A DNA stretch of 64,000 nucleotides from positions 619,739 to 683,738 of the forward strand of contig CP064977.1 of the NCBI GenBank assembly GCA_016699465.1. The letters are read 5' to 3'. Position 1 is the first letter of the stretch, and each line of letters starts with the position of its first letter. A program made the position numbers and the translations under genes. A model generated the notes under the pieces. That model did not search any database, had not been told where the DNA came from, and saw nothing but the letters and a program-made list of their open reading frames with translations. Source of the stretch: Candidatus Campbellbacteria bacterium (GTDB lineage Bacteria; Patescibacteriota; Minisyncoccia; Phycocordibacterales; EsbW-18). Below are positions 1-53,365 of this stretch, in pieces.

Positions 1-131
1 GTCCCCTCGTCGATGTCGGTCACGTGACCGACGATGGAGGACGTTCCTGGGCCGTGTACACGGACCTGCCGCCCCTGACTGTGCGCCCGCTTCAAAACCT
101 CAAACTTCTCGCACATGTGATTCTCCCTCAT
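1..131 (-). CDS. hypothetical protein, N-terminal fragment running off window start
   Basis: Minus-strand ATG at 131 gives an open frame to position 1 (MREN..KFEVLKRAHSQGRQVRVHGPGTSSIV...). Local GC is high. No recognisable family. Confidence 0.2.
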   Translation of the reverse strand, partial: MRENHMCEKFEVLKRAHSQGRQVRVHGPGTSSIVGHVTDIDEG

Positions 132-3572: not shown

Positions 3573-3680
3573 ATATAAGAATAAGCACAAAGTACAAAGC
3601 ACAAAATCCAAAAAATTAAAAAATACCAAATCAAAAATTTTGAGCTTTGAAATTTGAACTTTGGATTTATCATCATCATT
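3573..3680. repeat. family-A intergenic palindromic repeat, copy 1 (gcacaaagcacaaaatccaaaaa...tttgaactttggattt)
   Basis: Near-identical to 3903..3990; related copies at 5051..5139, 5530..5632, 30985..31060 (inverted) and 45655..45776 inside the 16S gene. Fills the rplN-rplX spacer. Confidence 0.8.
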
Positions 3681-3902
3681 ATGCACGTTAAAAAAGGAGA
3701 CAAAATCACCGTACTAACCGGAAAAGACAAAGGAGCCTCAGGCACGATTCTTAAGGCGTTGCCAAAGAAGGATATGGTTATTGTTGAGGGTGTAAACAAA
3801 GCAAAACGACACCAGAAAGCACGAAAAGGTAACCAGAAAGGTCAAATTCTTGAGAAGTCTATGCCAATTCACGTGTCGAACGTAAAGAAGGTAAAAGCAT
3901 AA
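3681..3902 (+). CDS. rplX: 50S ribosomal protein L24
   Basis: [39 protein letters not shown] (KOW motif) is L24; start at ATG 3681. Confidence 0.9.
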
Positions 3903-3990
3903 AGCTCAAAGCACAAAATCCAAAAAAATTAAAAAATACCAAATCAAAAATTTTGAGCTTTGAAATTTGAACTTTGGATTTATACATATC
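3903..3990. repeat. family-A intergenic palindromic repeat, copy 2
   Basis: About 85% identical to 3573..3680; fills the rplX-rplE spacer and ends at the rplE start. Confidence 0.8.
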
Positions 3991-5050: not shown

Positions 5051-5139
5051 TAGAGTAAGCACAAAGCTCAAAGCACAAAATCCAAAAATATTAATCTAAC
5101 TTTTTTGAACTTTGAATTTTGAACTTTGAATTTGAAATT
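5051..5139. repeat. family-A intergenic repeat, copy 3
   Basis: aagcacaaagctcaaagcacaaaatccaaaaa...tttgaactttgaattttgaactttgaatttgaaatt in the rpsN-rpsH spacer. Confidence 0.75.
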
Positions 5140-5529: not shown

Positions 5530-5632
5530 AAGATAATAAAAGCATAAAACACAAAGCACAAAATCCAAAAATAAAATCTAAATCTAATTTTTTGAACTTT
5601 GAATTTTAGATTTTGAACTTACACCATCATTT
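5530..5632. repeat. family-A intergenic repeat, copy 4
   Basis: cacaaagcacaaaatccaaaaataaaatctaaatctaattttttgaactttgaattttagattttgaactt in the rpsH-rplF spacer. Confidence 0.75.
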
Positions 5633-9263: not shown

Positions 9264-9794
9264 ATGTTTCAACACGACGATGTTATTCTCGTCGGAGTAG
9301 GCCATTGGTCATGTTCGAGGAACCCTCAAGATCTCGCGTATCCATTCTGGAGCTGGCGGGTCTCAATTGACGGAGTATTCCTCGAAGACGAAGAGTACAT
9401 TAACACGGGGATCGGGATTCATGGGAAAAGTGGGGCCGACAAGCTCATCGAGCGTCTTGGCCACATCTACCCAAGCCAATTCCTGAAGATTTTTTTGATT
9501 TTCCTGTTCATGTTCCCGGTGATCACACGTTCCTGTATCTACGTCTTTCGAAGATGCTCAATCCGGAGGCGCTCTCGTGGTTCTCAAGGAATTCTTTCCG
9601 TTTGTGTTTTCAAGAGCGGAAGAGACCTTGAGTCCATAAACATCCGCCCGAAGAGACGCCTGCTCTCGGGCGGCTCTTTTATTTATGGGATGGACGAGTT
9701 TAAACCTCGCTCATACTCAGAATTTGGGTCATTTGGACTTCAAATTTGTTTCGGATTTCGATATTCGGATTTTGGATTTTTGCTATATACTTGA
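9264..9794 (+). CDS. hypothetical protein (only the N-terminal ~80 aa looks protein-like; rest doubtful)
   Basis: ATG 9264 preceded by aggaga. The frame stays open to 9794 but runs through a terminator-like hairpin (9646-9685) and the family-B repeat (9736-9785). Confidence 0.25.
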   Translation: MFQHDDVILVGVGHWSCSRNPQDLAYPFWSWRVSIDGVFLEDEEYINTGIGIHGKSGADKLIERLGHIYPSQFLKIFLIFLFMFPVITRSCIYVFRRCSIRRRSRGSQGILSVCVFKSGRDLESINIRPKRRLLSGGSFIYGMDEFKPRSYSEFGSFGLQICFGFRYSDFGFLLYT

Positions 9795-9797
9795 GAT

Positions 9798-10370
9798 ATG
9801 CAATACAACACCATCGTCATTCTTGGAAAGCCTGGTTCTGGAAAAGGTACGCAGGCAAAACTTTTATCAGACAACGTCGGATTTCCTGTGTTTTCGGCAT
9901 CAGGACAACTTAAGGCTCTCGCGGCGTCACATCCAGATCTCGGTGAAGAAATTCTTAACGATATGGATCACGGTATTCTTGTGCCTCATTGGATTATTTC
10001 ATATTTGTGGATTTCGGCAGTCGTTGATTTAGGGCACGACAAGGGAATTATTTTTGATGGGGCGGTTCGTAAGATGGAAGAGGCAACACTTTTTAATGAG
10101 GTAATGCAGTATTTGAAACGTCCATATGTGGTTGTCTATCTCACTATTCCTGACGAAGAATTGCGCACTCGTATTAAAGAGCGTGCGCGTGTTGAAGATC
10201 GAGCCGACGACGATGAGACCATCATCACCAAGCGTTTAGAAGAATACCAAAATAATACACAAGGTTCACTCGATTTTTTCAAACGACAGGGAACACTTCT
10301 CGAAGTTGAGGGTATGGGAACCGTTGAAGAAGTGCACGAGCGAATTATCAAAGCACTTTCCAATCAATAA
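9798..10370 (+). CDS. adk: adenylate kinase (short form)
   Basis: VILGKPGSGKGTQAKLLS P-loop; TKRLEEYQNNTQGSLDFF; directly downstream of secY. Confidence 0.85.
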   Translation: MQYNTIVILGKPGSGKGTQAKLLSDNVGFPVFSASGQLKALAASHPDLGEEILNDMDHGILVPHWIISYLWISAVVDLGHDKGIIFDGAVRKMEEATLFNEVMQYLKRPYVVVYLTIPDEELRTRIKERARVEDRADDDETIITKRLEEYQNNTQGSLDFFKRQGTLLEVEGMGTVEEVHERIIKALSNQ

Positions 10371-10376
10371 AAATAA

Positions 10377-10402
10377 TTTTGTACCGATATATCGGTACAA
10401 AA
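10377..10402. repeat. perfect palindrome ttttGTACCGATATATCGGTACaaaa (copy 1 of 3)
   Basis: 26-bp perfect palindrome in the adk-map spacer; the same 20-bp core recurs at 47119-47138 and 51489-51508. Confidence 0.85.
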
Positions 10403-10421
10403 GGCATCTACACCCATTACT

Positions 10422-11189
10422 ATGTCTCTCATTAAAACACCTGAAGATCTAGAGCTTATACGAATCGCAGGAAAACGCCTTGCTCGTATTTTGGATGTGG
10501 TCGGCAAAGCGACAGTGCCTGGCGTTTCAACACAAGAGCTTGATGAAATGACAGAAGATCTTATTCGTGCAGGAGGGGACATTCCCGCATTTCTCAACTA
10601 CAAACCCGCTGGCGCTCCACGTGCATTTCCCGCAACGCTGTGTGTTTCAATAAATAATGAAGCGGTGCACGGTATTCCGCGAGAGGATCGCATTTTGAAA
10701 GAGGGAGATATTGTGAGTTTGGATACAGGACTTATCCACAAAGGGCGTGTCGCTGATATGTGTATCACCGTTGGTGTTGGTGCTATCGATGACACGGCAC
10801 AACGTTTGATTGAGGTTACAAAAAAAGCTCTTTTTTTGGGTATTGATGTGGCGCGTGCTGGTGCGTACATCAATGCAATTGGAAACGTTATTGAACCGTA
10901 CATTCTTTCAGAAGGATTTGAAGTGGTCGCTGACCTTGGTGGGCATGGTACAGGACTTGCGGTGCACGAAGATCCACATATTTTCCATATTGCGCAAAAA
11001 AACAAAGGCGTACAATTGTTGCCTGGCATGGTGATTACCATCGAACCAACGGTTGCTGAAGGGGAAGGTGAGGTAGATATTGCGGATGATGAGTGGACAT
11101 ACAAAACAGTCGACGGGTCTCGTTGCGCACAGTGGGAGCACACTATTGTGATTACCGATGGTGCACCAGAAATTTTGACGGCACTATAG
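10422..11189 (+). CDS. map: methionine aminopeptidase, type I
   Basis: HGIPREDRILKEGDIVSLDTG...DLGGHGTGLAVHEDPHIFH...MVITIEPTV carries the metal-ligand motifs. Confidence 0.92.
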   Translation: MSLIKTPEDLELIRIAGKRLARILDVVGKATVPGVSTQELDEMTEDLIRAGGDIPAFLNYKPAGAPRAFPATLCVSINNEAVHGIPREDRILKEGDIVSLDTGLIHKGRVADMCITVGVGAIDDTAQRLIEVTKKALFLGIDVARAGAYINAIGNVIEPYILSEGFEVVADLGGHGTGLAVHEDPHIFHIAQKNKGVQLLPGMVITIEPTVAEGEGEVDIADDEWTYKTVDGSRCAQWEHTIVITDGAPEILTAL

Positions 11190-30984: not shown

Positions 30985-31060
30985 CAAGTTCAAAATCCAA
31001 ATATCAAAATCCAAAATATATTTTTTTGAGTTTTGTACTTTGAGCTTTGTGCTTGTTTCA
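30985..31060. repeat. family-A repeat, inverted/partial copy
   Basis: caaaatccaaatatcaaaatccaaaatat...tttttgagttttgtactttgagctttgtgcttg is the reverse-complement flavour of the ribosomal-operon spacer repeat. Confidence 0.6.
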
Positions 31061-37500: not shown

Positions 37501-37537
37501 GTCCGTCCCTATGGATTCGAACCATGAACCGCCGAGG
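37501..37537 (-). repeat. diverged partial copy of tRNA 3' half (T-arm plus acceptor)
   Basis: gtccgtccctatggattcgaaccatgaaccgccgagg resembles the 3' half of the intact tRNA 40 nt away; the 5' portion is unrelated. Confidence 0.6.
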
Positions 37538-37580
37538 ATATCTTTGATATGAAACTTCGTTCGGACTATGCAAATCTGTG

Positions 37581-37654
37581 TCCGCCCCCATGGACTCGAA
37601 CCATGAACCGCCGAGGTATAAGCTCGGTGCTCTAACCAATTGAGCTAGGGGCGG
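37581..37654 (-). tRNA. tRNA with anticodon UAU (Ile, AUA-decoding)
   Basis: Minus-strand cloverleaf: acceptor CCGCCCC/GGGGCGG, D arm GCTC-AATTGGTTA-GAGC, anticodon arm CCGAG-CTTATAC-CTCGG, T arm CATGG-TTCGAGT-CCATG. Anticodon TAT read by eye; C1-G72 start unusual. Confidence 0.7.
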
Positions 37655-37758
37655 ACACAAATTTTCAAAAATCCTCACTCGTTTCCATATCTACGATACA
37701 CCAGGTTCACTCGCTCGGAGAAGAAAACAAGTTCTCTTCTCCTCACTCGTTGCCTGCC

Positions 37759-37796
37759 GTAAGCTCGGTGCTCTAACCAATTGAGCTAGGGGCGGG
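37759..37796 (-). repeat. partial copy of tRNA 5' half (acceptor through anticodon stem)
   Basis: gtaagctcggtgctctaaccaattgagctaggggcgg is identical to the 5' half of the intact tRNA at 37617-37654; no 3' half follows. Confidence 0.7.
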
Positions 37797-44549: not shown

Positions 44550-46135
<1,586 letters not shown>

Positions 46136-46311
46136 AGTCAAATGACAATCGTTGAACATCGAAATTTTTTCATGTTTGATCTAGGCGGTCGATATCATGT
46201 ACCTCAATTGAGTACGTGATGGATAGTAACTGGACATCTTTAAGTCAGTTGGACACCAGGGAAAGACCGGTTGAGCAGAACAAAAGAAAGACTGTGATTT
46301 TAAAAAAATAG

Positions 46312-46967: not shown

Positions 46968-47114
46968 GTACGCGCCCTTCGGGGAAAGGCGGCTGTTTTT
47001 TTATCTAGTATTTAACTTAAGTGCTGGATTTATACAAAGTGGAAATTGTGGGTTGGAGGTGGGAAGTGGCAAATTGGAAATTTATTAGATTGGGATTATT
47101 TTGATACACCACAT

Positions 47115-47142
47115 CAACTGTACCGATATATCGGTACAGTTG
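47115..47142. repeat. perfect palindrome caacTGTACCGATATATCGGTACAgttg (copy 2 of 3)
   Basis: 28-bp perfect palindrome; same 20-bp core as 10380-10399 with different, still palindromic flanks. Confidence 0.85.
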
Positions 47143-47348
47143 AGAAATTTGGTGCGCGTTAGGGTGGGCGGCCACAGATATTTTTCTGCTGAAAAATTTT
47201 ACGAAGCCTCCTTCGGCACGATCTTCTGATCGCTCGTCTCAATGAGTACATTGACCTACTGGGTCATACCGTCGCGTTCCGACCTTCGACCTCTGTCGAC
47301 ACGGTAAAACAAAATCGCCGAAAGCTTTCGCCCTCGGCTCATTTGTTT

Positions 47349-47424
47349 TGGTGCGCGCGCTAGGGATCGAACCTAGGACCTTTCGAGTATCAGTCGAATG
47401 CTCTACCAGCTGAGCTACGCGCGC
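47349..47424 (-). tRNA. tRNA-Ile (anticodon GAU), CCA encoded
   Basis: Minus strand GCGCGCG TA GCTC AGCTGGTA GAGC A TTCGA CTGATAC TCGAA AGGTC CTAGG TTCGATC CCTAG CGCGCGC A CCA. Confidence 0.85.
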
Positions 47425-49696: not shown

Positions 49697-50185
49697 ATGC
49701 ACAAAAGAAAGCTGACATTCTGGCAAAAAGGTATTCATTTTTTTAATCCAGTGATGTATCCGTTTGTACATCTGTACTGGTTTTTGACACGGCCGCGCTC
49801 TGCAGGGGCAAAGGTTGTTATCACACATGAAGATCACGTGCTCGTTGTTGAACACACGTATGGCTCGGGTTCAAATATGTTTCCAGGTGGAGTGATTGAG
49901 CGTGGTGAAGAACCAGATAGGACTGCATTGAGAGAAGTGGAAGAAGAACTGGGCATTGTACTCGAAGAAGTTATTCCACTAGGCTCTTTTGAGTTTGAGG
50001 GGCATTATAAACAAGATACGATACACGTGTTTCATGGAAGGGTACAAAGTAGAGAGGTGTACCCTGATCCATTTGAAATCAGGAATGTGTTTTGGTTTCC
50101 AGTGCACAGCATGCCACAATTAAGTCGGGCATCAAAAACCATTTTTGATATGTACCAAGATTATGCACAACGTACTCAATCATAA
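49697..50185 (+). CDS. NUDIX hydrolase
   Basis: PGGVIERGEEPDRTALREVEEELGIV is the Nudix box. Confidence 0.75.
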   Translation: MHKRKLTFWQKGIHFFNPVMYPFVHLYWFLTRPRSAGAKVVITHEDHVLVVEHTYGSGSNMFPGGVIERGEEPDRTALREVEEELGIVLEEVIPLGSFEFEGHYKQDTIHVFHGRVQSREVYPDPFEIRNVFWFPVHSMPQLSRASKTIFDMYQDYAQRTQS

Positions 50186-51458
50186 CAACATAAAACACAT
50201 TCACTTCGTCGGCGTTGGAGGTATTGGTGTTTCTGCTATGGCGCGAATGATGAAGTACCACGGTAAACATGTGAGTGGTTCTGATAGAACTATGACACCG
50301 ATTACGCGCGATTTGGAGGGTCTTGGTATACGTGTGCGGCCAGGACATGACGAGCACCATGTGCCTCTATTTGCCGATTTGGTTGTGTACTCACCAGCAA
50401 TAACTCCTGACAATCCAGAACTTGTTCGTGCTCGTGCGCTTTCTATCCCAACACTCTCATACCCGGAGGTACTTGGGGAAATTTCACAGAACGCGTTTAC
50501 GATTGCGGTATCAGGTACACACGGAAAGACGACAACAACCGCAATGATTGCTGACGTGTTGGCAAAGGAGATTTATCCAACAGTGATTGTCGGCTCACTT
50601 CTCAAGGGTGGACGAAGTAATTTTGTTCCAGGACACACAAAACGTTTTCTTGTGGAGGCATGTGAGTACAAACGTTCATTTTTACATCTACATCCAAGTG
50701 TGTTGGTTATTACGAATATTGATGAAGACCATCTCGACTACTACAAAGATTTGAAAGATATTCAGAGTGCATTTCGTGAGTTGGCTCTCAAGGTTCCTGC
50801 GCATGGCGCTATTGTGTGTGACACGAGTGATCCGATTGTACAAGAAACACTCGCAGGTATTTCAGTTCCTATACTCAACTACATGGCGCACTATAATCCA
50901 AACCGAGAACTTTTTGTGTTTGGTGAACACAACACAAAAAACGCCGCTATTGCACATACGGTAGGGGACTTCTTTGAAATTCCAGAAGAAACTATTAATG
51001 AGGCGTTAAAAAACTTTCAAGGAACCTGGCGACGATCTGAGCACAAAGGACGCACCGTGCGGGGGACTGAAGTGTTCGATGACTACGCGCATCATCCGAA
51101 GGAAATCGCTACTACTCTTGCTGGTTTTAAGAAACGTTTTCCTGATAAAAATATTGTTGTGGTATTTCAGCCGCACCTCTACAGCCGAACAAAACTTTTC
51201 TTCAATGACTTTGTAGATAGTTTACAGGGTGCTGACAGAATTCTCCTTGCTCCAATTTACGCTGCACGTGAGGCGCACGATTCTTCAATATCTCACCACA
51301 TGCTTGGTGATGTGTTACGTCAGTATGGAAAGAAAGCGGAATCATACGAATCGCTTGATGCGCTGACGCACGCGTTGTCTCGAAGTGTTGAGCCAGATGA
51401 TGTTGTGGTAACGATGGGGGCAGGAGATATCTACCAAGTTGGCGAGAAATTTTTGTAA
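50163..51458 (+). CDS. murC: UDP-N-acetylmuramate--L-alanine ligase MurC
   Basis: HIHFVGVGGIGVSAMARMM, VSGTHGKTTTTAMIADVL, C-terminal Mur ligase domain; start at ATG 50163. Confidence 0.82.
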   Translation: MHNVLNHNNIKHIHFVGVGGIGVSAMARMMKYHGKHVSGSDRTMTPITRDLEGLGIRVRPGHDEHHVPLFADLVVYSPAITPDNPELVRARALSIPTLSYPEVLGEISQNAFTIAVSGTHGKTTTTAMIADVLAKEIYPTVIVGSLLKGGRSNFVPGHTKRFLVEACEYKRSFLHLHPSVLVITNIDEDHLDYYKDLKDIQSAFRELALKVPAHGAIVCDTSDPIVQETLAGISVPILNYMAHYNPNRELFVFGEHNTKNAAIAHTVGDFFEIPEETINEALKNFQGTWRRSEHKGRTVRGTEVFDDYAHHPKEIATTLAGFKKRFPDKNIVVVFQPHLYSRTKLFFNDFVDSLQGADRILLAPIYAAREAHDSSISHHMLGDVLRQYGKKAESYESLDALTHALSRSVEPDDVVVTMGAGDIYQVGEKFL

Positions 51459-51484: not shown

Positions 51485-51512
51485 ACTCTGTACCGATATA
51501 TCGGTACAGAGT
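51485..51512. repeat. perfect palindrome actcTGTACCGATATATCGGTACAgagt (copy 3 of 3)
   Basis: 28-bp perfect palindrome after murC. Confidence 0.85.
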
Positions 51513-51592
51513 GCGTGCTGTGAATATAAAATTTTTATGCAAACCCGGAAACACTCTTGTAAAACAATCGACCTGGATTTTTCTATAGATAT

Positions 51593-51931
51593 GTGGCATA
51601 TTCTTTCAAGAAAGAAGCCGTTTTCTACACACCAACCAGAGGAGAAAAGGTTGTGATACAAGCAGTGCAGACGCGTCCCGCATTCCCCGCAGTCGGTACA
51701 GTCTTCGAGCCCACCGCGAGCTCGGAGATCACCCCGCTTGGTCTCGTCCTCGACTTTGGATACAACTCCGAGAGCCGGCCTCTGGCTGGAGTTCGTCGAG
51801 GTCGCCGAGTAGCGTTTCGTTTCCAACTCATGCCCCGCCCGTTTTCTGTAACAATACAAAAACGAGGCAGGGCATTCTTGTTTTTAAAAATCGTAAAGGC
51901 GTTGTTTTTAGAGAAGGGAAACCGTGTCTGA
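51593..51931 (+). CDS. hypothetical ORF in short GC-rich island (strand and frame uncertain)
   Basis: ORF 51593..51931 (+) and antisense ORF 51470..51859 (-) are both open. A plus-strand terminator hairpin at 51828-51895 lies inside the 3' end of the + ORF, so neither model is clean. Confidence 0.2.
   Translation: MAYSFKKEAVFYTPTRGEKVVIQAVQTRPAFPAVGTVFEPTASSEITPLGLVLDFGYNSESRPLAGVRRGRRVAFRFQLMPRPFSVTIQKRGRAFLFLKIVKALFLEKGNRV
51828..51895 (+). terminator. extended hairpin plus U-tract
   Basis: atgccccgcccgtttt-ctgtaacaatac-aaaaacgaggcagggcat followed by tcttgttttt. Confidence 0.5.
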
Positions 51932-51970
51932 AATTTAATTTTGAGATATACTGCCTAGTGTAATTGTTAT

Positions 51971-52693
51971 ATGTACACACCTGACGAAAAACAGAATTTG
52001 GAAAATGTGCCACTTGGAACGCTTTTTGTTGTGGGGACACCAATTGGTAATTTGGAAGACGTCACGCTTCGCGCGCTCCGTATTTTGAAAGAAGCGGATG
52101 TTATTTTTTGTGAAGATACACGCGTGACCAAACGATTGTTGGATAAGTATGATATTCACACACGTACATCATCTCTCAATGCGCGAACTGAGCATGCAAA
52201 AATTGGTTCCGTGATGGGGGCGTTGACGGAAGGGAAGAAAGTTGCATTGGTGTCAGATGCGGGCACACCAGGAATTTCTGATCCAGGTTCGCTCGTTGTT
52301 TCAGTGATTCGAGAAAAAATGCCGGACGTGCGCATTGAAGCAATCCCAGGACCCTCGGCGCTGACCACAGCACTTTCAATCGCAGGTGTACCAATTGCTG
52401 ACTTTGTATTCTTGGGATTTTTACCTCACAAGAAAGGACGACAAACACTCTTTAAAGAAATGGAAGAATCGAAACGTGCGACAGTATTCTATGAATCTCC
52501 GCACCGAATTATGAAAACACTCGCAGTGCTTGCGGAATCACTTGATGGCGCGCGCACAATTTCAATTGCGCGTGAACTCACCAAAATTTATGAAGAAATT
52601 GTGCGTGGAAATGCACAAGAAGTGCTGAGTTACTTTGAATCAAACGAAGACAAACAACGAGGTGAGTTTGTAGTAATTGTCTCAGGGAAATAA
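51971..52693 (+). CDS. rsmI: 16S rRNA (cytidine1402-2'-O)-methyltransferase RsmI
   Basis: GTLFVVGTPIGNLEDVTLRALRILKEADVIFCEDTRVTKRLL is the tetrapyrrole-methylase-fold RsmI N-terminus; 240 aa. Confidence 0.85.
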   Translation: MYTPDEKQNLENVPLGTLFVVGTPIGNLEDVTLRALRILKEADVIFCEDTRVTKRLLDKYDIHTRTSSLNARTEHAKIGSVMGALTEGKKVALVSDAGTPGISDPGSLVVSVIREKMPDVRIEAIPGPSALTTALSIAGVPIADFVFLGFLPHKKGRQTLFKEMEESKRATVFYESPHRIMKTLAVLAESLDGARTISIARELTKIYEEIVRGNAQEVLSYFESNEDKQRGEFVVIVSGK

Positions 52694-52738: not shown

Positions 52739-53056
52739 GATGTGCTACGGAGAGCGTTCGTGAGACTGAGCCCACGAGCGAGATGCTGGATCACCCCCTT
52801 AGGAAGCGGTACCTTGGCCGAAACGGCTCTTGGTACCGGTGCTGGTCGAACCGTTGACGTTGACCTTCACCGGGCACGCGGCGCTTCCCATCACCCCTCC
52901 TCACCATGAGTATGTGTCCGTTCTAGTACGGAAGTCACACCTCACAGTATCCGTTGTGATACTAGCATAGTATTTTATTTGGATACAGTACTTTGTGGCG
53001 CATGTTTTGTATGTATCCCACATGATTGTATATCCGCATATTTGGTAAGATGCTGA

Positions 53057-53365
53057 GTGCAGGATATATCCCGCACTAATTTTTTGAAGGTTATGCCATC
53101 TACAAAATTTGTTGGTATGGTTACTGCGGGGTATACTCGTATCTATATGACCAGTAAACAAACTATGTTTTGTATAGTTCTCGGCATTGTCCTGATTGTA
53201 AGTCATATCATTGGCATTCCTCTTGCATGGAAAGAATTTGTAAGTGTGTGTGCCGGCATGTTGTTTCTCGGATGGGGATTGTATGAACGATATTACAAAG
53301 AAAGTACACCACCTACATCAGAGAGTGTTTCTTCTGCACGCGATATGCATCCCACACACGTATGA
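53057..53365 (+). CDS. hypothetical small membrane protein
   Basis: Two TM helices; overlaps the next gene start by 4 nt. Confidence 0.4.
   Translation: MQDISRTNFLKVMPSTKFVGMVTAGYTRIYMTSKQTMFCIVLGIVLIVSHIIGIPLAWKEFVSVCAGMLFLGWGLYERYYKESTPPTSESVSSARDMHPTHV

Follow-up and report, generated by a model that had tools for sequence, protein, structure and literature searches.

Within the Trp-repressor family (Pfam PF01371), the operators of both TrpR and HisR are 20-bp palindromes, with TGTAcTnGTnnACnAgTACA as the published TrpR motif (PMC9413887). The operators of HisR, also named YerC and found in Firmicutes and Proteobacteria, are lineage-specific; they were predicted by comparative genomics, and frequently one of them precedes the gene of the regulator itself (PMC9413887). 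REP/REPIN elements (BIMEs) are intergenic palindromes whose stems vary in sequence yet remain complementary. They are imperfect, contain a loop or bulge, carry a conserved 5' tetranucleotide and exist in tens to hundreds of copies per genome, and the single-copy gene for their Y1/HUH transposase, the RAYT protein, is bracketed by two of them. Finally, palindromes can be enlarged by mutation, as template switching extends the arms of quasi-palindromes and can generate perfect stems in one step (PMC3820800, PMC8794818). Transcriptional regulation in Patescibacteria is almost unexplored, and a full-text search for Patescibacteria together with Trp repressor or TrpR retrieved no paper.

The window analyzed here, a stretch of 64,000 nt from a Candidatus Campbellbacteria genome, contains a 20-bp palindrome, TGTACCGATATATCGGTACA, which, from its sequence and context, is best read as an operator of the TrpR family that is new and uncharacterised. 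In the full-text library searched, the motif string was found only in an unrelated geminivirus paper and no publication describing the palindrome was found. Three exact copies had been reported in the original prediction and were confirmed, with cores at positions 10380-10399, 47119-47138 and 51489-51508, where none is expected by chance. The number of matches in the window remained three when up to three mismatches were allowed (zero in 100 dinucleotide shuffles), and degenerate, shorter or looser versions of the motif yielded no extra copies within it. Each core is embedded in a longer perfect palindrome. Copy 1 spans 26 bp (10377-10402) and copy 3 spans 28 bp (51485-51512), as originally described, and copy 2 had to be corrected from 47115-47142 to a 30-bp palindrome at 47114-47143. 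Summed over the three copies, 12 complementary flank pairs are found outside of the core, which corresponds to a chance of about 4^-12 = 6e-8 by simple arithmetic. In total, five perfect palindromes of the window have arms of 10 nt or more and a loop of 0-1 nt, versus zero or one in Markov simulations. A larger repeat common to the 500-nt flanks of the window copies was not found, so that no MITE body is apparent. If transcribed, the hairpins would be stable (-13.4, -22.4 and -23.8 kcal/mol; z = -4.8 to -5.9). As had been stated, none of the copies is followed by a U-tract, and a scan for intrinsic terminators did not call the palindromes, which have no T-run and an AT-rich, palindromic centre. 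Rfam 15 covariance models returned only sub-threshold, chance miRNA-like matches to the hairpin at the window palindromes, the runs around copies 2 and 3 being performed with gathering thresholds and with permissive E-values. When the surroundings of copies 2 and 3 were scanned for promoter and terminator consensus sequences, the matches did not outnumber those in shuffled sequences, and nothing was called at the palindromes.

Copy 1 is indeed located in the gap between adk (9798-10370, plus strand; Pfam ADK, E = 1e-25) and map, the gene for methionine aminopeptidase (10422-11189, plus strand; Pfam Peptidase_M24, E = 1.2e-41). The spacer between both genes comprises 51 nt, and the end of copy 1 is 19 nt away from the ATG of map, which follows directly 3' and is a candidate regulated gene. 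Copy 2 is found in non-coding DNA ~970 nt beyond the lone 16S rRNA gene (44550-46143), between a remnant downstream of this gene and the terminator of tRNA-Ile(GAT) (47349-47424, minus strand). The tRNA gene has its own intrinsic terminator (47338-47317, minus strand), and copy 2 is situated ~170 nt past it. A companion motif, the 22-mer GATATTTTTCTGCTGAAAAATT, is located 34 nt from copy 2 (47177-47198) and is partly conserved in L093, a contig from a Campbellbacteria MAG. The identical 22-mer also occurs in the Paceibacterota MAG LejiaA_42_15 (LejiaA; locus L016, 2836-2857); in both genomes it lies between a tRNA gene and the palindrome, and its orientation relative to the tRNA is the same. 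Copy 3 starts 26 nt 3' of the stop codon of murC (50145-51458, plus strand; Pfam Mur_ligase domains) and opens a non-coding gap of 512 nt between murC and an rsmI-like TP_methylase gene (51971-52693, plus strand; Pfam TP_methylase, E = 8e-39), which is located 462 nt 3' of the copy. The RNA genes of the window are the lone 16S rRNA gene, one tmRNA gene and three tRNA genes. The "GC-rich ORFs" that had been given as neighbors of copies 2 and 3 show no Pfam or Rfam match and have low-complexity translations. They were rejected as genes, one of the regions being a shortened remnant in comparison with L093 and the other replacing a gene that relatives carry.

A scan of species-representative genomes with the 18-mer core of the motif detected it eight times in exact form in LejiaA and once in a MAG of Zambryskibacteria, and the other matches were scattered singletons. 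According to a simple ORF map, all Paceibacterota and Zambryskibacteria copies are intergenic. The LejiaA copies are located inside perfect palindromes of 22-40 bp with differing flanks and cluster with at least four other families of perfect palindromes. They are found where repeated modules of a mosaic, with 85-97% identity, adjoin each other, and the homology between these modules stops at the palindrome. A scan of metagenomes with TRTACCGATATATCGGTAYA yielded 63 loci. About half of all sites are located between convergent genes or otherwise without a facing gene start. Where a start does face the site, it belongs to map and the rsmI-like gene in the window and to nusA, pheS and obg in LejiaA, and several tRNA genes lie within ~200 nt. 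These neighbors hint at translation-related targets. However, translation-related genes dominate such small genomes and, consequently, no regulon function is claimed.

The Zambryskibacteria copy belongs to a locus (L013) in which an ORF of 133 aa matches the Pfam Trp_repressor family PF01371 with E = 9e-13, above the Pfam cutoff. This regulator gene carries TATACCGATATATCGGTATA 15 nt before its ATG and TGTACCGATATATCGGTACA after its stop codon. The copy 3' of the regulator gene belongs to the sites without a facing gene start. Genes of the PF01371 family were found to adjoin the motif, in the form of TGTACCGATATATCGGTACA or of TATACC...GGTATA, in at least nine lineages among the other genomes; besides L013, the loci are L021, L023, L034, L039/L056/L069, L040, L046, L076 and L080. 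The encoded proteins, identified by tblastn, Pfam and a family HMM, are only 33-40% identical to the L013 protein. The motif is usually present on both sides of the PF01371 gene, with the upstream copy overlapping the -10 box, and seven of the metagenomic loci contain two copies that bracket the regulator gene at a spacing of 458-482 nt. In a reverse test, five homologues (L084-L088) were chosen only for their long contigs, without reference to the motif. All five exhibit an ATATAT-centred palindrome 6-40 nt upstream of the ATG and another 6-61 nt after the stop codon. In total, 380 homologues of the L013 protein were found, most of them annotated as "Trp family transcriptional regulator" or "YerC" of Patescibacteria, and the clade, with protein lengths of ~132-136 aa, occurs widely among Paceibacterota and other Patescibacteria. 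Its gene has conserved chromosomal neighbors, namely smc, rnr, dnaE, thrS and gyrB. Owing to this conserved synteny, the idea that the gene and its two palindromes constitute a mobile cassette was rejected. A search of the window and of the eight LejiaA loci with tblastn and the family HMM did not reveal a TrpR-family gene, and we infer that a cognate regulator gene is present elsewhere in the genome of the window. The original prediction had set a known operator with a cognate regulator encoded elsewhere against its own hairpin reading, and the observed arrangement comes close to this case, with PF01371 genes adjoining the motif in other genomes.

The sequence of the core follows that of the protein. 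Ten proteins with the recognition helix S(I/T)ST..R share the core ...TACCGATATATCGGTA..., and proteins with the helices SPATVAR, SYTTVFK, SPSTVAK and SYPTLSR are associated with the other cores TTTATCATATATGATAAA, TATACAATATAT.GTATA, TACTACGATATAT..TAGTA and TTAAC..ATATATGTTA, respectively. The core co-varies with the recognition helix in this small sample of ten proteins with the shared core and four others. The palindrome TGTACCGATATATCGGTACA is identical to the published TrpR motif at 12 of 16 specified positions and shares its length and its TGTAC...GTACA ends. The recognition helix ISTVTRMS aligns with IATITRGS of the Escherichia coli protein, and four of six DNA-contact residues of TrpR are identical (Ile79, Thr81, Thr83 and Arg84; list from PMC9413887). 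In an AlphaFold model of the regulator (mean pLDDT 75), the top 34 Foldseek matches in the PDB are all chains of the TrpR family, with a probability of 1.00 and target-normalised TM values of 0.62-0.73.

The system resembles E. coli TrpR in the length and the ends of the operator, the Pfam family, the predicted TrpR fold and the overlap of the operator with the -10 box of the regulator's own promoter. Extra half-sites with a period of 8 bp at L052 and at a human-gut locus recall the tandem binding of TrpR (title of PDB entry 1trr). In contrast to E. coli TrpR, the operator has CCGAT in place of CTAG in its inner half-site and ATATAT at its centre, the protein exceeds TrpR by ~25 aa and carries a conserved GLPPRxGRGRW tail, a second operator is usually located 3' of the regulator gene, and the neighbors are housekeeping genes (map, nusA, pheS, obg and tRNA genes). 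The host is not known to have tryptophan biosynthesis. HisR likewise belongs to the same Pfam family and uses 20-bp palindromic operators, and some databases label the Patescibacteria proteins YerC. However, the HisR motifs, cacTTTAnnnnnnTAAAgtg or TGTAnTArnnnnyTnTTACA, are different, HisR is found beside his genes, of which there are none here, and in its DNA-contact residues the Patescibacteria protein resembles TrpR more than HisR.

Some of the sites coincide with promoters. At L022/L063 and L025, the motif occupies precisely the span of a TTGACA-17-TATAAT promoter, as judged by consensus match. At L034, L040, L046 and L080, a TATAAT or TATATT box composed of GGTATA and two flank bases is located 7-8 nt ahead of the start codon (ATG) of the regulator gene, an arrangement that suggests leaderless and autorepressed regulator genes. 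In the proposed model, a dimeric helix-turn-helix regulator of the Trp-repressor/YerC family would bind the palindrome, each half of the dimer reading one TGTACCGAT arm. At the regulator's own gene, binding to the copy over the -10 box would occlude RNA polymerase and result in autorepression, with a second copy located after the stop codon; transcription start sites would be expected 7-8 nt 3' of the predicted box GGTATAAT. The window copies would represent further binding sites, at which the bound protein might block initiation or act as a roadblock. No convincing promoter was seen at the three window sites, where the TGTACC variant gives a poor -10 box. As about half of all sites have no facing gene start, simple promoter occlusion cannot explain all of them.

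Flank complementarity was quantified for 47 unique sites from many genomes after removal of duplicates. The perfect extension beyond the 20-mer amounts to 3.43 bp on average and reaches up to 14 bp per side, compared with a mean of 0.58 and a maximum of 1.30 in 2000 permutations of the right flanks among sites. The complementary flanks noticed at the three window copies thus reflect a non-random pattern that is general and real. Beyond the first mismatch, the pairing drops to the level of chance, with 64 of 282 pairs (22.7%) being complementary over the next six positions, and G:T accounts for 8 of the 47 first mismatches, which equals the random expectation and represents no enrichment. The symmetry continues unbroken through the centre with a loop of zero; the true terminators of this genome have asymmetric loops of 4-5 nt and T-runs. 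Flanks that are perfect, end abruptly and show neither an excess of G:T nor a loop argue for a DNA copying process and not for a selected RNA fold. The original prediction had taken the flanks as a sign of selection on a hairpin and not just on a protein-binding half-site, a conclusion that these data do not support. The formation of a hairpin probably does matter.

Comparison of orthologous sites provides further insight into the origin of the flanks. The adk-map spacer reads AAATAATTT[core]AAAGGCATC in the window and AAATAACGT[core]ACGTTCATC in L091; in each lineage, the tract that has changed corresponds to the opposite flank in reverse complement, and the outer AAATAA and CATC are conserved. 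The flanks of copy 1 in L089, a 95% relative, are the same as in the window, whereas those in L091, an 83% relative, are different, longer and again complementary. The spacer is wholly absent in L090 and L092 (87% and 79% relatives). Copy 2 has its orthologue at L093 3448-3467, where the right flank (G/A)TTGAGAAA is common to both sequences and the left flank is complementary only in the window and not in L093. Copy 3 is absent from the respective position in L093 and L094, which contain a gene of 218-247 aa instead. Map and MurC of the window are 83-86% identical to the proteins of a Candidatus Campbellbacteria MAG, which identifies the window as part of a Paceibacterota/Patescibacteria genome; no record with the exact Map sequence was found.

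Both orthologous comparisons (n = 2 only) would be in line with template switching within one strand that overwrites a single flank, and they fit such growth better than selection on an RNA hairpin. A perfect 20-bp palindrome could fold back in single-stranded DNA during replication or repair, so that the nascent strand would use one flank as the template for a few bases of the other, as in quasi-palindrome correction. Such copying would keep the arms identical and allow the palindrome to grow by arbitrary sequence, and the variable flanks would be located outside of the recognition site. The clustered "compensatory" changes, their abrupt ends and the conversion of one flank into the reverse complement of the other are shared with quasi-palindrome correction. 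The difference is that the seed here would be a selected protein-binding palindrome and that the process is deduced from comparative data alone. In LejiaA (L016 2710-2781), the terminator hairpin 3' of tRNA-Met has been lengthened by 26 nt that repeat the tRNA 3' end in inverted orientation, which shows the same copying tendency in this clade.

On balance, the 20-bp core is probably a TrpR-family operator whose flanks are a by-product of template switching, rather than a selected hairpin or a REP element, and this explanation is held with moderate confidence. As the core behaves as a TrpR-family operator, the candidates named originally, a REP-like element, a 3'-stabilising hairpin or an attenuator, are not supported. 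It is nevertheless unusual for a regulon that the three window copies are identical at 20 of 20 positions without any weak sites. Moreover, point mutation cannot create a new exact 20-bp site, so that some copy mechanism must spread the sites. A REP/BIME- or MITE-like palindrome that is dispersed by copying and pasting, perhaps with help of the bracketed helix-turn-helix protein in the role of a RAYT, would provide such a mechanism. It would also account for solo copies that are exact and always intergenic, for the polymorphic presence of the adk-map spacer and of copy 3 among close relatives, and for the clustering with other palindrome families at the junctions of mosaic modules in LejiaA; moreover, a regulator gene bracketed by two copies is a hallmark of RAYT/REP systems. 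This origin is still considered unlikely. No HUH/Y1 or other transposase was found, the bracketed 133-aa protein has a TrpR fold without a catalytic motif, and its gene resides in conserved synteny. The copy number appears to be tens at most, with eight exact copies in LejiaA, one in the Zambryskibacteria genome and three per 64 kb in the window, the palindromes are perfect with zero loop, target-site duplications are lacking, and two of the three window sites occupy orthologous positions in a relative with ~83-86% protein identity. A different binder, such as a GntR/FCD or Cro/C1-type helix-turn-helix protein, would leave the operator as such in place. The same TATACC...GGTATA 20-mer is located between GntR/FCD and creatininase genes at a human-gut locus that was sampled 28 times. 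In L026/L033 it has a GntR/FCD gene as a neighbor, in L022/L063 it lies within an HTH_3 gene promoter, and the motif is therefore not exclusive to TrpR-like proteins. The contigs in question are unlike Patescibacteria in G+C and gene content, all associations found in contigs of the Patescibacteria type involve PF01371 genes, and the co-variation of helix and core is seen only in that family, which makes a binder from another family decidedly improbable for the window. Taken together, the identical copies, the sites without a facing gene start, the absence of copy 3 in relatives, the clustering in LejiaA and the GntR/HTH_3 sites leave REP-like spread and another binder as minority readings.

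A function at the RNA level, as a bidirectional terminator without U-tract, a 3' mRNA stabiliser or an RNase III site, would place the palindromes in transcripts of ribosomal-protein, rRNA/tRNA and mur operons. The computed stabilities, the position of many copies at gene 3' ends or between convergent genes and the complementarity that is kept at an orthologous site despite sequence change would all be in line with this function. However, an RNA hairpin needs a loop, whereas the symmetry of the palindrome has no gap at its centre, the conservation of an exact 20-nt sequence across distant lineages is more than a structural element would need, and many copies are found in promoters, 10-19 nt before start codons. 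Together with the missing U-tract, the chance pairing right after the first mismatch and the lack of enrichment of G:U-compatible mismatches, this renders a functional RNA hairpin distinctly unlikely. Least probable, and very much so, is a recombinase target or a fragile site that breaks at a cruciform. The copies do coincide with differences between relatives, namely an inverted tRNA-Ile at copy 2, a lost gene at copy 3 and the presence or absence of the adk-map spacer, and the homology of LejiaA modules ends at the palindrome. Yet no recombinase gene is linked to the sites, the breakpoint of the tRNA-Ile inversion does not lie at copy 2 because its right flank is conserved, and rearrangements are expected near any long palindrome and would leave the conservation of the core unexplained. 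Two further readings were dropped: a restriction-modification site, for which the motif is too long and no such genes are linked, and parS, as the sites are neither bracketed by nor linked to such genes.

A more speculative extension, which we regard as a long shot, is that the TrpR-like protein and the palindromes form a self-propagating system, in which the protein promotes copying to new intergenic sites. The helix-turn-helix protein might stabilise fold-back or cruciform intermediates that seed template switching between loci. If true, this would amount to a genome-colonising repeat system of the REP/RAYT kind that relies on a DNA-binding protein without catalytic activity; in the streamlined genomes of Patescibacteria, it would also rewire regulation and mark the junctions of rearrangements. 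The favored explanation, a TrpR-family operator with flanks generated by template switching, would offer a putative regulator-operator pair for a widespread clade, with an exact site, a lineage-specific code and candidate housekeeping targets that can be tested. It would also illustrate, in a clean natural case, how a palindrome bound by a protein lengthens through flanks that are arbitrary in sequence and yet perfectly complementary. For genome scans, a caution follows, as "compensatory" stem changes can result from mutational copying and, on their own, are no proof of structural selection.

Several additional features were noted around the sites. The intergenic regions of LejiaA contain arrays of different perfect zero-loop palindromes, for example TTCAACACGCCACCCGGGTGGCGTGTTGAA, TAAATGCGCACGCCGGCGTGCGCATTTA and TACAAGGGGWCCCCTTGTA, beside a TrpR-type site; such arrays or mosaic modules are located at L002 5689-6103, L011 1325-1560, L012 4323-4633 and L016 2881-2967. 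In 28 human-gut loci (L024-L079; for example L030 5665-5702), a 38-bp perfect palindrome with an 8-bp TATA periodicity, ATATACCATTATACCGATATATCGGTATAATGGTATAT, is situated between divergent genes for a GntR/FCD regulator and a creatininase, and A/G variants occur across strains on one arm or on both. Three scaffolds of one Megasphaera hutchinsoni assembly (L001, L014 and L017) end in the palindrome AGAGTACCGATATATCGGTACTCT, which may reflect an assembly break at a hairpin or the end of a repeated element. A second palindrome with a conserved core, GAGGTTWAACCTC, is present in the window (9696-9708, with one mismatch), in L089 (44-70), in L091 (9301-9319) and in L002, L007, L011 and L012; its core is common across genomes, and the flanks vary and are self-complementary. 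The palindrome GTCGGTCACGTGACCGAC is found at the very start of the window (15-32).

Near copy 2, tRNA-Ile(GAT) is inverted relative to its flanks when the window (47349-47424) is compared with L093 (3530-3604), and the region from the 16S rRNA gene to the palindrome is ~1.6 kb shorter in the window than in L093 and without a 303-aa gene. Downstream of copy 3, the window contains unrelated non-coding DNA (51513-51970) that is GC-rich at 51600-51799; the gene in the murC-rsmI interval of relatives is fast-evolving and has no Pfam match. After rsmI, L093 carries a site with one mismatch, TGTACCGATATATTGGTACA (10792-10811), inside a 28-bp near-palindrome. The aligned window sequence, TGTATCCCACATGATTGTATA, looks like a decayed copy of it, and the nearby palindrome AGTGCAGGATATATCCCGCACT is conserved in the window and L093 (window positions 53056-53077 and about 53000-53020). 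Fragments of tRNA genes were observed beside the intact gene for tRNA-Ile(TAT) in the window (37517-37795) and, as three copies of the 5' part, for tRNA-Thr in L004 (2536-3017). Finally, a hairpin-forming, AT-rich repeat of ~90 nt, which is composed of CAAAG/CTTTG units, occupies spacers of the ribosomal-protein operon and a position before the tmRNA gene (copies at 3582-3670, 3901-3983, 5057-5133, 5551-5607, 30986-31054 and 45670-45756), and one copy forms a low-GC insert inside the 16S rRNA gene that is shorter in L093.
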